Source of the DNA: Promethearchaeota archaeon | Lineage (GTDB): Archaea > Asgardarchaeota > Lokiarchaeia > Sigyniarchaeales > SOKP01 | Direction: 5' to 3' | Assembly (NCBI GenBank): GCA_011364975.1 | Contig: RDOE01000011.1 | Coordinates: 1 to 59,427 of the forward strand | Length of the DNA: 59,427 bases | Shown: positions 3,177 to 24,920 of the stretch, one piece after another | How the letters are laid out: every line of letters begins with the position of its first letter | How positions within the stretch are numbered: position 1 is the stretch's first letter | The notes under the pieces: generated by a model | Database searches by the model: none | What the model saw: only the letters and a program-made list of their open reading frames with translations | What the model was told of the DNA's origin: nothing | Made by a program: the position numbers and the translations under genes

Positions 3177-4265
3177 TTGAAAGCACCTGAGAGAATTTTA
3201 AAATCAATCAATCATGAGGAGCCAGATAAGGTTCCTGTTTTCGAAACTGCTTTTACTAATAATACAATTATGAAGTATTATGGAGTAAATGTATCAACAG
3301 GGAGAGGGTATAAAATATATTATGAATTCTTAAGAAATGTTGGAATAGATTTAGTCTTGAGTTTAGTGTCATTATTTCCCCGTAAATTTCTAAAGCGAGG
3401 GGAGGGTTTCATTGATGAATATGGAAGAGTTATGAAATTCGAGAAGTATAAAGATGGTACTCAATTAACAACTTATGTTGGAGGACACTTTAAAACATTT
3501 GAAGAATATGAAAGTTGGGAACAACCAGATCCGAACTTAAACACAAGGTTAGAGCAATTTTTTGATGGAAGGAAGATTCAAAATGAGTTAAATGACGAAG
3601 TCTTTTCGATTCCCGCAACGGGTTCTCTAATGGAATGTACATGGGAAAGTTTTGGCTTAGAAACTTTTTCAAGATTATTGGCTAAGAAGCAACAAATAAA
3701 GAAGATCTTTGATGATCGGGGGAAATTTACTCTTGAAATGGTTAAAATTTTAGCTGAAAATGATGCTAAGATAGTCTTATTATGGGATGATTATGGATTT
3801 AAAAACGGATTGTTCATGAGACCAAGTCTTTACCGAGAATATATCTTTCCATGGCTTAAAAGAATTTGTGAAGCAGCACATAAACACGATTGTAAAATAA
3901 TGCTTCACTCAGATGGAGACTTGATGGAGATTTTCGAGGATATTGTTAAGGCAGGGGTAGATGTTATTAATCCAGTGGAATCAACAACAGCAAATCCAGA
4001 ATATGATATATTCAAATTAAATGAAAAATATGGAGATAAGATAACCTTTTCTGGAAATTTAAGCCCAATCTTACTTGCGATTGGTGAAATTCATGAGATT
4101 GAGGAGTATGCCAAACGATTAATTCGAGAATTAGCCCCTGGAGGGGGTTATATATTCGGGTCAGGCCATAGTATTAATCCGGCTGTCACTATCGACAGAT
4201 TTGAAGCAATGCAAAACATTCGTAGAAAATATGGAAATTATCCAATTAAAATCCCTAATAATTAA
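3177..4265 (+). CDS. Uroporphyrinogen decarboxylase / MtaA-CmuA methyltransferase superfamily protein
   Basis: ER..INHEEPDKVP, DEYGR, WDDYG, LHSDG, GGGYIFGSGHSI. Confidence 0.85.
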   Translation: MKAPERILKSINHEEPDKVPVFETAFTNNTIMKYYGVNVSTGRGYKIYYEFLRNVGIDLVLSLVSLFPRKFLKRGEGFIDEYGRVMKFEKYKDGTQLTTYVGGHFKTFEEYESWEQPDPNLNTRLEQFFDGRKIQNELNDEVFSIPATGSLMECTWESFGLETFSRLLAKKQQIKKIFDDRGKFTLEMVKILAENDAKIVLLWDDYGFKNGLFMRPSLYREYIFPWLKRICEAAHKHDCKIMLHSDGDLMEIFEDIVKAGVDVINPVESTTANPEYDIFKLNEKYGDKITFSGNLSPILLAIGEIHEIEEYAKRLIRELAPGGGYIFGSGHSINPAVTIDRFEAMQNIRRKYGNYPIKIPNN

Positions 4266-20700: not shown

Positions 20701-22101
20701 GTGTTAAAAATGCCTTCTAATAATAATAGACCGGGTTCTCGAACCGAAATCGCAATTATAGGCATGGGATATGTTGGGATCCCCATGGCAGCATTGCTGG
20801 CAGATGTAGATGATTTTTACGTTACGGGAATTCAAAGGAGATCTCAACGCTCTGGTTGGAAGATTGATTGGCTTAATTCTGGAAAAAATCCTTTTGAAGG
20901 AGATGAGCCAGGATTAGATGATTTGATAAAAAGGGTAGTTCAAAATGGTAAGTTTAAAGTTAGTGATAATTACGATGCTGTTGATAATGCGGATTTTATT
21001 CTAATTGATGTGCAAACTCCAGTAGATGATGATCGAATTCCAAGATATGAATCCCTTCTTGAAGTATCTCAGAATATATCTAAACACCTTAAAAAGGGAG
21101 CCACAATTATACTCGAATCTACTGTAGCTCCTGGAACAACTGATAGTTTAGTTTGCCCAATACTGGAAGAAGGAAGTGGCTTAAAAAGGAGTAGAGATTT
21201 CTATCTTGTATTTTCTTTTGAACGAGTTATGCCAGGTAAATTATTGGAATATATTACAGATTTTCCACGAGTGATTGGAGGAGGGTGCAAACAAGCTAAC
21301 GAAAATGCAAAATTTTTATACGGGAAAGTAGTTAAAAAAGCATTGCAAGTTACAGATACTCTCACTGCAGAATTAACCAAATGTATTGAAAATGCTTATC
21401 GAGATGTTAATATCGCATTTGCAAATGAAATGGCTTTGCTCTGTGAGGATTTTAATAGAAATATATATGAAATAATTGGGTTTATAAATCAACGTCATGA
21501 TAGAATGATGCATTATCCTGGATCTGGCGTAGGAGGTCACTGTTTAACCAAGGATCCTTGGTTACTTTTGCATGGATATAATAAGTATACCATCCGTAAG
21601 AATGAAGCTAAAATTAAAATAGTTCCAGATTCCAGAAATTTAAATGATTACATGCCTTATCATATGGTTGAATTAATGGAAGAAGTATTTAGGGAATCAC
21701 ATAAACTTGTTGATAATATAAAGATTGTTTTATTGGGAGTATCCTATAAAGCAAATACAGATGATACTCGAAATACACCTACAGAAAATATTATTAAGGT
21801 ACTCCAGAGTCGATATCATTCTCATAATATAAACTATATTGCTCATGATCCTTATGTTAATGAAAGAGATTATAGACTCACAGAATTAACAACCAATTTT
21901 GATGAAGCGGTTAAAGGGGCTGATGTATTAATATTTGCAACTAATCATAGAGAATATTATGAAATTGATTTAGATGAACTTAAAAAGAAAGTAAGAACTC
22001 CTATTATAATCGACGGGAGGAATATCTTTAACAAGAAAGTTATTGAAGAAAAAGGTTTTATCTACCGTAAAGTTGGTGAAGGTCCGGAAAAACCTTTCTA
22101 A
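20701..22101 (+). CDS. UDP-N-acetyl-hexosamine (ManNAc/GlcNAc) 6-dehydrogenase family
   Basis: IIGMGYVGIP, VQTP, LESTVAPGTT, ERVMPG, ENAYRDVNIAFANE, PGSGVGGHC, DGRN. Confidence 0.92.
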   Translation: MLKMPSNNNRPGSRTEIAIIGMGYVGIPMAALLADVDDFYVTGIQRRSQRSGWKIDWLNSGKNPFEGDEPGLDDLIKRVVQNGKFKVSDNYDAVDNADFILIDVQTPVDDDRIPRYESLLEVSQNISKHLKKGATIILESTVAPGTTDSLVCPILEEGSGLKRSRDFYLVFSFERVMPGKLLEYITDFPRVIGGGCKQANENAKFLYGKVVKKALQVTDTLTAELTKCIENAYRDVNIAFANEMALLCEDFNRNIYEIIGFINQRHDRMMHYPGSGVGGHCLTKDPWLLLHGYNKYTIRKNEAKIKIVPDSRNLNDYMPYHMVELMEEVFRESHKLVDNIKIVLLGVSYKANTDDTRNTPTENIIKVLQSRYHSHNINYIAHDPYVNERDYRLTELTTNFDEAVKGADVLIFATNHREYYEIDLDELKKKVRTPIIIDGRNIFNKKVIEEKGFIYRKVGEGPEKPF

Positions 22102-22213
22102 ATACCATTCAACAATTTACTATAACTTATTTTTAAATCTCAAGTTCTTGCAGAACCTTGAAATAAATCCTAGCATTTAAAAATTTATCTCAAGAGATTA
22201 TTATTTACTTTTT

Positions 22214-22351
22214 TTACTTATTATTAATTTTGGCTTTCTTTTTTTTTCTAATAGAGTTAATATAGGTGATTATGCCATCCACAATGCCTCATCCTGTACA
22301 AAACTGCTCTTCTTCATAAGGCCGTTTTATTTTATCTTTCCATTCAGACAT
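22214..22351 (-). CDS. Candidate 45-aa selenoprotein with CxxU motif (in-frame TGA at codon 21)
   Basis: MSEWKDKIKRPYEEEQFCTG(U)GIVDGIITYINSIRKKKKAKINNK*. TGA at 22289-22291, three codons after a Cys; the frame stays open and protein-like for 24 more codons. Confidence 0.5.
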
Positions 22352-22478
22352 TTTTCTAAGGTGGGTCTATTTTTTTAATTAGAATAAAAAAGAACTAAAT
22401 TAAAAGAATAATTATTATATTTAATAAGAGTTGAATAATTTGTTTATTTATTAGAATAGCGTTAAGAGTGAGTTAAAT

Positions 22479-22757
22479 ATGGTATTTAAAGACTTGAAGC
22501 ATGAACTTGCTGAAATGAGAAAAAGTATGGATAAAATAACTATGGAACTTCATGAAACCAATATTGCTTTAAGAGAGTCGCTGAAGATGACTGCAGACTC
22601 TATTAGAGAGATGAGTGAAAACTTTTCTAAATCATTAGAGCAGACTCTAATTGCTATGCAGGATATGAAAATTCAGATGGACATTAAAGATACCATTATT
22701 AAATCACTTGGTATTGAAGGAATATTACCAGATTTTTTAAAAACAAGAAAAAAGTAA
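22479..22757 (+). CDS. Small coiled-coil hypothetical protein
   Basis: Heptad-like helical sequence, GAGTGAG SD-like element upstream. Confidence 0.75.
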   Translation: MVFKDLKHELAEMRKSMDKITMELHETNIALRESLKMTADSIREMSENFSKSLEQTLIAMQDMKIQMDIKDTIIKSLGIEGILPDFLKTRKK

Positions 22758-22994: not shown

Positions 22995-23079
22995 AATGTC
23001 AATTAATATGCTGTTAAATTTAATTAATAATATTCATAATAATCAATATTATAAAAGACTTAGAATATTAAAAACAGAA

Positions 23080-23280
23080 ATGTTGAAAAAACCACCAAAT
23101 TGTTATATTTGTGGAAAAAATTGTGTTGATATATTAGATAGGTGTCATTATTGTATTTGCGATATTAATATTTGTGATACTTGTTTGAACTCAGTGAAGA
23201 AGAATGATAAAGTATGGATTTGCCCAAGTTGTCATGAAGAAAGGAATATTGATACCAGTAAGTTGTTTCGAGACAAATAA
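23080..23280 (+). CDS. Stand-alone C4C4 RING-type zinc finger protein (Not4-like spacing)
   Basis: Likely start ATG 23080; C-x2-C-x13-C-x-C-x4-C-x2-C-x12-C-x2-C with W.CP.C. Confidence 0.75.
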   Translation: MLKKPPNCYICGKNCVDILDRCHYCICDINICDTCLNSVKKNDKVWICPSCHEERNIDTSKLFRDK

Positions 23281-24071: not shown

Positions 24072-24920
24072 ATGAACATCTGGGTCTTAGATTCTGAAAG
24101 CGGTATTACTCTACTATATAAAGCTTACATGGATCTCCCTTTAGATGAGGATCTTGTGTCTGGACTATTAGCTGCCTTAAATCAATTTACAGTATTTGAA
24201 TTCCAACAAGGGATTGAAAGTATCGATATGGGGGGTTTGCGATGGGTATATCTTGAAGAGAAAGAAGCAAATCTCCTATTTGTAGCAGCAGCAGATAAAA
24301 ATGTTAGTTCAATTATTTTGAAGGCTCGATTAAGTATTATAAAACAAACTTTTCTGGAAAAGTACGTATTAAGTGATCTAGAAAAATGGAAGAAAACATG
24401 GAAAGGAAATACAGACCTCTTTACTCCTTTTAAACAGATTATAGATGAATATTATTCCCAATGGTTAAGAGCAGAAGATATCTCTACAATCGCGGAGTAT
24501 TGGGACATTTTGGGGGTATTCCAACAAATATTAAATCTACTTATGAATGTAATTGAAGCTCATGTGAAACCAAACCAGAGGGAAGTTATCTATAATCGAA
24601 TAGAGTCTATGTTTCAAAATTATTTAACTCATGATTATGTCAAGAATAATCCAGAATTGAGTAAATTTGCGTTTAATAGAATGTCAGGTATTAACATTAT
24701 TAATATAGATCCAACAAATTGTGATATGCTTGTTGTAGAAAAACAAGTTATTAATCTCATAAGAAGAATTGTTGAAATGGTAAAGAAAGAAGAAGGTTAT
24801 TATACCAGTTTAAAATATTTCATTGAAGAAAATATATTTGAGTACTTAATTTCAAATGTTTCATTATTAAATGAATTAAATTTATTCAAATTCTTTTTAA
24901 AGCTTTTCTTATTAAATTAA
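24072..24920 (+). CDS. Longin-domain protein (eukaryotic signature type)
   Basis: IWVLDSESGITLLY..DEDLVSGLLAALNQF..IESIDMG..LLFVAAAD. Confidence 0.8.
   Translation: MNIWVLDSESGITLLYKAYMDLPLDEDLVSGLLAALNQFTVFEFQQGIESIDMGGLRWVYLEEKEANLLFVAAADKNVSSIILKARLSIIKQTFLEKYVLSDLEKWKKTWKGNTDLFTPFKQIIDEYYSQWLRAEDISTIAEYWDILGVFQQILNLLMNVIEAHVKPNQREVIYNRIESMFQNYLTHDYVKNNPELSKFAFNRMSGINIINIDPTNCDMLVVEKQVINLIRRIVEMVKKEEGYYTSLKYFIEENIFEYLISNVSLLNELNLFKFFLKLFLLN

Follow-up and report, generated by a model that had tools for sequence, protein, structure and literature searches.

A predicted 45-residue selenoprotein with a variant SECIS-like 3' element in a Lokiarchaeia genome and its relatives

Seven selenoprotein families (SelD, FrhA/VhuU, HdrA, FrhD/VhuD, Prx-like, AhpF-N-like and DsbA-like) are given for Asgard archaea in the excerpts of Huang et al. 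(2024; PMC11227280) on which we draw; according to the same excerpts, they were found by homology to known families, and eukaryote-like or GAA_A-type models of the selenocysteine insertion sequence (SECIS) were required. A 2026 review (PMC13188914), in its excerpted parts, adds no peptide of the kind described here. The SECIS of Lokiarchaeota (Loki SECIS), as outlined in passages of Mariotti et al. (2016; PMC4989117), opens with AUGA, continues into a stem of 9 bp whose loop of 11 bases runs from adenines to (A)G, and closes with GA. Here we analyse contig RDOE01000011.1 of a Promethearchaeota archaeon (assembly GCA_011364975.1; the 59,427 nucleotides studied are hereafter the window), where a short minus-strand frame at 22351..22214 is, to judge from its sequence and that of its relatives, very probably a genuine gene for a 45-residue selenoprotein (family A), its UGA being read as selenocysteine (Sec) and its 3' side carrying a SECIS-like element. 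A sequence-only reading of the window had proposed a new peptide outside the reported selenoproteins at this place, and it is indeed not among the seven families as excerpted. Published surveys would have missed it, since they searched by homology to known families. Our full-text literature search found no report of such a peptide; the supplementary tables of two selenoproteome papers, which could hold an unclassified hit, lay outside its scope.

The frame occupies a 377-base spacer flanked by two plus-strand genes. It runs from an ATG (22351..22349) through 19 further codons to a TGA (22291..22289), and then through another 24 codons to a TAA (22216..22214). The encoded peptide begins with MSEWK and continues with an acidic linker, a C-x-x-U motif, an amphipathic helix and a poly-Lys tail. 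Frame and peptide are as the sequence-only reading had written them, and its statement that the gene is invisible to callers of open reading frames (ORFs) holds as well: calling with translation table 11 yields only two fragments, of 20 and 22 amino acids (aa).

Family A is widely conserved among the relatives of this archaeon. A DNA search of 41 related genomes returned stretches about 70% identical, several of which start near the ATG, and the frame is present, with the same five N-terminal residues, in all 15 loci examined in the genus. In these loci the acidic linker differs in length but always in frame, the stop falls at the same position of the motif, and the residues past it are conserved; where the stops were checked, the internal one was TGA and the final one TAA in 14 of 14 loci. 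A profile of the family matched 107 of 154 genomes in a six-frame search of the order and 106 of 400 genomes in a search of the phylum (ten genera, one match per genome at E <= 0.001), and every listed phylum match has exactly one in-frame TGA. All phylum matches fall within a single family-level lineage, f1 (105 of 134 genomes, the window's own genome left out), and none was found in the 265 genomes from other families of the phylum. An alignment of 58 orthologues has TGA at codon 21 in each of them; Met1, Cys18, Sec21 and Asp25 are invariant, with Lys5 and Gly20 conserved in 90% or more. The distance from Cys18 to Sec is 2 in most orthologues, 4 in a few and 7 in a subgroup of genus g22. The genomes behind these counts are related and not independent of each other; given conservation in 106 of 400 genomes, the frame with its TGA is far beyond chance.

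As table 11 ends the frame at the TGA, the UGA might be a true stop, leaving a 20-residue product followed by a structured non-coding 3' region or by a separate second peptide. The pattern of substitution speaks against this. Across the 58 orthologues, the 14 codons past the TGA vary most at the third position (nucleotide diversity 0.398, 0.237 and 0.577 at codon positions 1, 2 and 3), and 33% of the codon differences in this part are synonymous in the frame of the upstream ATG (43% before the TGA), as opposed to 9% and 4% when the same bases are read in the other two frames. The Gly codons on either side of the TGA vary synonymously too (the one before it is GGA in 28 sequences, GGT in 15, GGC in 14). 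No start codon is conserved past the TGA, the GTG of this genome being ATT, ATC or GTT elsewhere. Third-position variation, a synonymous excess limited to one frame and the lack of a conserved start together indicate that the downstream part is translated in the frame of the upstream ATG. Moreover, changes of length upstream of the TGA keep the frame, and a sister family (family B, see below) has TGT at the same place. The only stem in the downstream stretch (22269-85) is the one to which the sequence-only reading had drawn attention: all six of its pairs form in this genome, as that reading saw, yet in this genome only, and five or more are possible in just 24 of the 58 orthologues. Being unconserved, and arising from Ile, Asp and Gly codons, it is not a signal. 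We therefore regard a true stop as very improbable, and recoding of the TGA as the only reading consistent with conservation of the gene past it; the kept TGA with coding-type conservation on both sides, to which the sequence-only reading had looked for support, is what the orthologues display.

Judged by its genes, the host is able to make selenoproteins. Its genome encodes SepSecS (460 bits, above the cut-off), and 83 bases from that gene lies a gene resembling the transfer RNA for Sec (tRNA-Sec), 87 bases long and with the anticodon UCA; a SelB-like gene follows about 4 kb further on the same contig (cluster at C106:32958-39594). A PSTK-like gene is present, and SelD carries an in-frame TGA at the usual site. 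The Sec machinery that the sequence-only reading wanted confirmed in the genome was thus recovered with unequal scores, SepSecS and the Sec-containing SelD passing their cut-offs and the tRNA-Sec-like, SelB-like and PSTK-like genes matching strongly but below theirs. The tRNA-Sec-like gene shows acceptor-stem mismatches as aligned. Since TGA closes 192 of the 1567 long open frames of this genome, it is an ordinary stop there and has not been reassigned. Across the lineage, SepSecS occurs in 130 of 135 genomes, and all lineages that hold family A have Sec machinery; the co-distribution of SepSecS and the gene within the lineage is uninformative, with 130 of 135 genomes positive, including those of a genus (g15) without family A.

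Shortly after the stop codon of family A lies a conserved stretch (22202..22133) that RNAalifold folds into a three-way junction of a closing helix (P1), a main hairpin (P2) and a side hairpin (P3; Table 1). The sequence-only reading had reported no canonical SECIS, counting this against its own proposal. That remains true (by our covariance model of canonical SECIS, R2, by Rfam and by the lack of AUGA and GA), although a SECIS-like element does exist at 22133..22202. Across its copies, P1 is an AUCUC/GAGAU closing helix, P2 has a stem of 9-10 bp and a loop of 11-12 bases, and P3 has a YGCAA loop. In an alignment of 15 sequences 94.7% of the cells pair, double changes occur in 11 of 19 pairs, and none of 500 shuffles equals the covariation score; slid controls for this alignment stayed at or below 0.18. 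A covariance model of the element (R1) found 99 copies in 70 related loci. In the alignment of these copies, fitted to the model, 96.8% of the cells pair, double changes affect 16 of 19 pairs, and again 0 of 500 shuffles equal any measure; all nine modelled pairs of P2 and all five of P3 covary. The P2 loop has AAA in 99 of 99 copies and closes with U, A and G in 98, 94 and 99 of them, respectively, the P3 loop has its G in 98 and its C in 91, and both strands of P1 are near-invariant in sequence. Measured from the first base of the element, the end of the stop codon lies anywhere from 14 bases before to 40 bases after in the 93 elements with a scripted ORF. When the R1 model and an nhmmer profile of the 99 elements were run on the window's genome, both found only this one element, which implies that no further gene of such kind exists there.

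The distribution of the element follows that of TGA-bearing mini-genes. It was found in 108 of the 135 genomes of lineage f1, mostly once or twice per genome, and its tallies per genus equal those of the family A gene except in g22 (47 elements vs 45 genes), where two genomes (G093 and G116) have the element and family B without a family A match. Of the 99 copies, 92 directly follow a mini-ORF with one TGA and five come after a single-TGA frame of family A or B whose start is not ATG or which shows no stop in the stretch examined; one follows a Cys form and one is a weak remnant. Apart from these last two, the element occurs genome-wide only behind TGA-bearing mini-genes of families A and B. 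A weak extra element (L117 304-366 (-), 38.6 bits) lies just past that of family A in a genome that has no family B, and may be the remnant of a lost family B gene.

Family B is a second mini-selenoprotein of about 45 aa, with an acidic N-terminus, Cys-x4-TGA and a conserved Met-Trp-Tyr helix. It is encoded on the same strand 230-370 bases downstream of family A and has its own element of the same type. Present in 64 of the 154 genomes of the order, all of them in f1, it adjoins family A in about 60; in the window's genome, which is 99% complete, it was not found at E <= 1. The position four residues past Sec is Asp in family A and Asn or Asp in family B. In genus g21 the two genes directly adjoin, with one element for both placed after the second. 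In one genome assembled as a single contig (G089), family B was matched three times and the element five times (around C1:190007-191483 and C1:2131808-2132249), with the extra copies some 1.9 Mb away from the syntenic locus. At the very codon where family B otherwise has TGA, four genomes carry TGT (Cys); three of these have no element after the gene, and the fourth (G130) has one of the two weakest. Family B therefore shows the classical Sec/Cys signature, in which the element is lost along with the TGA, and shows it in a paralogue rather than in family A itself.

These findings bear on another explanation, according to which the gene is real and its UGA is read through without Sec (by near-cognate insertion of Cys or Trp, or in a programmed manner), the element having nothing to do with Sec and acting as a terminator, for stability or in protein binding. 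Such a view would account for an element that has no AUGA/GA core and is missed by the canonical SECIS model and by Rfam; the Cys forms of family B fit an insertion of Cys equally well, and the element stands at a terminator-like site before a convergent gene. Nevertheless, where TGA has become TGT the gene is kept and the element is gone in three of the four genomes (which represent two events), and a terminator would still be needed where Cys forms have no element. In 135 genomes, the element lies behind TGA-bearing mini-genes and behind no other kind of gene, and the sharing of one element by the g21 pair has a parallel in HdrA-VhuD, as described in the excerpted text of Mariotti et al. (PMC4989117). 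Sec machinery is found in all holder lineages, and the element has three separate features of the canonical SECIS of the genus, which its model ranks first (see below). Taking both sides together, we consider read-through without Sec improbable and favour decoding of the UGA as Sec.

Canonical Loki SECIS occur in the window's genome and genus behind known selenoprotein genes, and 26 of them were extracted with their flanks (loci L030-L059; in the window's genome, contigs C69, C119, C145, C149, C154, C169 and C173). Their folds likewise include a closing helix, and a small side hairpin with a loop that is often YGCAA; this side hairpin goes unmentioned in the description of the Loki SECIS in the passages of Mariotti et al. 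(PMC4989117) at hand. In all 26, a G stands two bases before AUGA and a C follows GA, as would suit a kink-turn with a closing G-C pair. The element of the mini-genes resembles the Loki SECIS in its site in the 3' untranslated region near the stop, in its 9-bp stem and in its 11-base loop with an A-rich start and an AG end; with the canonical SECIS of the genus it has in common the closing helix and a side hairpin whose loop is of the YGCAA type. A single element serving two adjacent genes is likewise common to the g21 pair and to Loki SECIS genes. The mini-gene element differs in that the side hairpin directly follows the main stem and the closing helix is a near-invariant AUCUC/GAGAU, and many copies have a run of A that falls short of the canonical AAAAA.

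This likeness could be recovered by search. The model of the AUGA-free elements was run unfiltered on 85.5 kb around 30 matches to the canonical pattern (26 of them with a paired stem): its seven best hits, and 13 of 38 hits in all, fell exactly on canonical SECIS with the P2 loop and P3 aligned. A descriptor without AUGA, applied to the 3.7-Mb genome, gave four sites (the element of the window, two canonical SECIS and one unexplained), and none in the reversed genome. The unexplained site (C69:3549-3578, minus strand) lies about 200 bases downstream of a canonical SECIS (3759-3793) on the same strand, and may be due to chance or be a second element. Model R2 found no canonical SECIS within about 1.5 kb in the 15 mini-gene loci. 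It gave two weak hits on the strand opposite to the mini-gene and about 280 bases upstream of it (L003 1213-1297 (-) and L002 1980-2064 (+); 18.5 and 16.9 bits, E 0.3-0.6), which have ACGA for AUGA and a loop ending in UAG and are conserved in two genomes. On the whole window, Rfam at its gathering threshold returned no SECIS and no other credible family, and ARAGORN returned nothing. A kink-turn formed by a shifted register of AUCUC/GAGAU was considered by hand and discarded, as it places the G-A pair where needed in only 22 of the 99 elements.

We reason, from likeness of sequence and fold, that the element is most likely a derived Loki-type SECIS whose AUGA/GA kink-turn core has been lost or moved. 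In the mechanism we propose, the ribosome would read the UGA at codon 21 as Sec, and the 3' element would recruit the Sec elongation factor to this UGA from about 90 bases downstream. We give even chances to a more specific version of this proposal, by which the element is a working SECIS without the AUGA/GA core, its reader sees the AUCUC/GAGAU helix, the YGCAA hairpin and the apical loop rather than the motif common to eukaryotes, and families A and B make up a class of helix-only Cys/Sec peptides for redox chemistry or metal binding. Four metatranscriptome contig sets, searched at 80% likeness, did not cover the locus, which says nothing on its expression.

The AlphaFold model of the peptide, computed on the 58-sequence alignment, consists of two helices, at residues 4-8 and 20-44, joined by a loop (9-19). 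Its mean predicted local distance difference test (pLDDT) score is 77, rising to 90-94 over residues 21-40, and Sec21 stands at the start of the 25-residue amphipathic helix. By a helical-wheel count made by hand, Sec21, Asp25, Thr29 and Asn32 lie on the polar face and Ile, Val and Tyr opposite, with the poly-Lys tail following. Pfam assigned neither family A nor family B peptides to a family, and Foldseek found no match to the family A model in the PDB, as expected for a lone helix. A C-x-x-U at the N-terminus of a helix is the redox pair of thioredoxin-fold selenoproteins; the model, with its two helices, does not have the thioredoxin-like beta-alpha-beta fold around this motif. By analogy, our first guess is a redox peptide in which Cys18 and Sec21 would cycle between selenol/thiol and selenenylsulfide, although we would put this at clearly less than an even chance; a metal site made by Cys, Sec and Asp is a less likely use of the same residues. 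In either case, the hydrophobic face of the helix, together with its basic tail, would anchor the peptide to the surface of a partner (membrane, nucleic acid or protein), and families A and B may form homo- or hetero-oligomers that unite several Sec residues.

So short a frame with so early a UGA could also serve chiefly as a selenium sensor, the Sec-dependent translation of which, whether finished or broken off, would signal the supply of selenium and regulate a neighbour while the peptide has little function of its own. The 127-base upstream region held in common with the divergent 92-aa gene, a conserved neighbour of family A in 29 of 30 loci, would suit such a role. Selection at the amino-acid level past Sec, the invariant Asp25 and the conserved hydrophobic face do not, and in this genome the gene downstream is convergent rather than on the same strand. 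Family B, in addition, persists as a Cys form without the element, from which it follows that the peptide matters in itself. We hold a sensor to be the least probable of the explanations weighed here, slightly below a true stop, and retain that of a selenopeptide with a function of its own.

Several results weigh against a selenoprotein gene with a working SECIS-like element, and are gathered here. AUGA (ATGA) is found 5' of the stem in 0 of the 99 elements and GA 3' of the stem in one. The hits of the forward search on canonical SECIS are individually weak (E-values from 0.04 to 0.7), and in the reverse direction model R2 recovered only two of the 15 mini-gene elements, at ranks 8 and 14 and with E > 1; Rfam, opened to E <= 10 on 22050..22420, gave no SECIS and no other credible family. 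On the side of the machinery, the tRNA-Sec-like gene scores 40.3 bits vs an Rfam cut-off of 47, and ARAGORN called no tRNA in this candidate; the SelB-like gene reaches 234.5 bits vs a curated cut-off of 242, and the PSTK-like gene 166 bits vs 290. The Cys homologues that the sequence-only reading had named as possible support for family A did not turn up among the 400 genomes of the phylum or the 154 of the order, and are known from the sister family B only; as the search covered 400 genomes, such forms are possible beyond them. As the three Cys forms of family B that have no element come from close kin, they amount to one event, or to two together with G130. Finally, the view of function is drawn from the motif, a single AlphaFold model of a 45-residue peptide, and analogy.

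The surroundings of the gene are stable: in each of 30 loci family A has the dehydrogenase gene as its neighbour, and in all but one of them the 92-aa gene as well. The 127 bases between family A and the 92-aa gene (22352-22478) contain an A/T-rich block, some 50-85 bases before the ATG, which is conserved among orthologues and may be a shared promoter region with TATA box and B recognition element (TATA/BRE). Two further conserved neighbours on the plus strand have Pfam likenesses below the cut-off, one (window 22996-23280) to a FYVE-type zinc finger (22.5 bits) and the other (window 24072-24920) to a FUZ/MON1-type longin domain (16.6 bits). FYVE-type and longin signatures are eukaryote-like trafficking features of the kind reported for Asgard archaea.

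Table 1. Coordinates of the family A gene, its putative SECIS-like element, the adjoining genes and the family B loci (window positions unless a locus is named).
Feature	Position	Strand	Remarks
Family A mini-selenoprotein gene (predicted)	22214..22351	-	45 codons + TAA stop
In-frame TGA, codon 21, Cys18-x-x-TGA21 (4th position of motif)	22289..22291	-	predicted to be read as selenocysteine
Cys18 codon, putative Sec partner in C-x-x-U	22298..22300	-	invariant in 58/58 orthologues
Asp25 codon, one helical turn past Sec	22277..22279	-	invariant in 58/58 orthologues
SECIS-like element, three-way junction	22133..22202	-	starts 11 bases past stop; model R1 72.5 bits, E 3e-12
P1 5' strand, AUCUC	22194..22198	-	pairs with GAGAU
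P1 3' strand, GAGAU	22137..22141	-	pairs with AUCUC
P2 hairpin, 10-bp stem (22182..22191/22160..22169), 12-base apical loop (22170..22181)	22160..22191	-	AAA + terminal UAG
P3 hairpin, 5-bp stem, UGCAA loop	22143..22157	-	fold + covariation
Convergent neighbour, UDP-glucose/GDP-mannose dehydrogenase family	20701..22101	+	Pfam; synteny anchor, outside the system
Divergent neighbour, 92-aa protein	22479..22757	+	synteny anchor; no Pfam match above cut-off
Family B loci	L069 527-667; L072, L083, L085, L087, L110-L126	+ (L069)	outside the window's genome

The present data would add two selenoprotein families, A in the window and B in related genomes, which have no known relative and are invisible to gene callers; about four fifths of one Loki-type family have mini-selenoproteins of this kind. 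The AUGA/GA core is what connects the SECIS of archaea with those of eukaryotes. If the element works, it offers a natural test of which parts of a SECIS are needed in Asgard archaea, and scans that require AUGA undercount selenoproteins; a true core-less SECIS would also change the proposed archaea-to-eukaryote path of SECIS evolution. The peptide, at 45 residues, is small enough for synthesis, so that its chemistry can be addressed directly.

Among described systems, two groups come closest in their products. The Rdx group of thioredoxin-fold selenoproteins (SelW, SelT, SelH) has, like family A, a C-x-x-U pair at the N-terminal end of a helix; family A differs in being a lone helix without beta-alpha-beta, in being less than half the size, and in a Cys-Sec spacing that varies (2, 4 or 7). 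VhuU of Methanococcus is a very small Sec-containing subunit, the split-off C-terminus of the large subunit of [NiFeSe] hydrogenase, and is encoded in a hydrogenase operon. It is, as family A appears to be, an archaeal selenopeptide of a few dozen residues, whereas family A is placed between the sugar dehydrogenase and 92-aa genes and has no likeness to hydrogenase by Pfam. With the known Asgard selenoproteins family A has in common its hosts, the Sec machinery and a TGA conserved across many genomes; it departs from them in having 45 residues, no Pfam likeness, no Cys form in 400 genomes and a range confined to one family-level lineage. Set beside these systems, family A is best classed as a new selenoprotein family with a variant, non-canonical SECIS-like element: it fails two defining features of the SECIS, and would otherwise work like a Loki SECIS-dependent gene.

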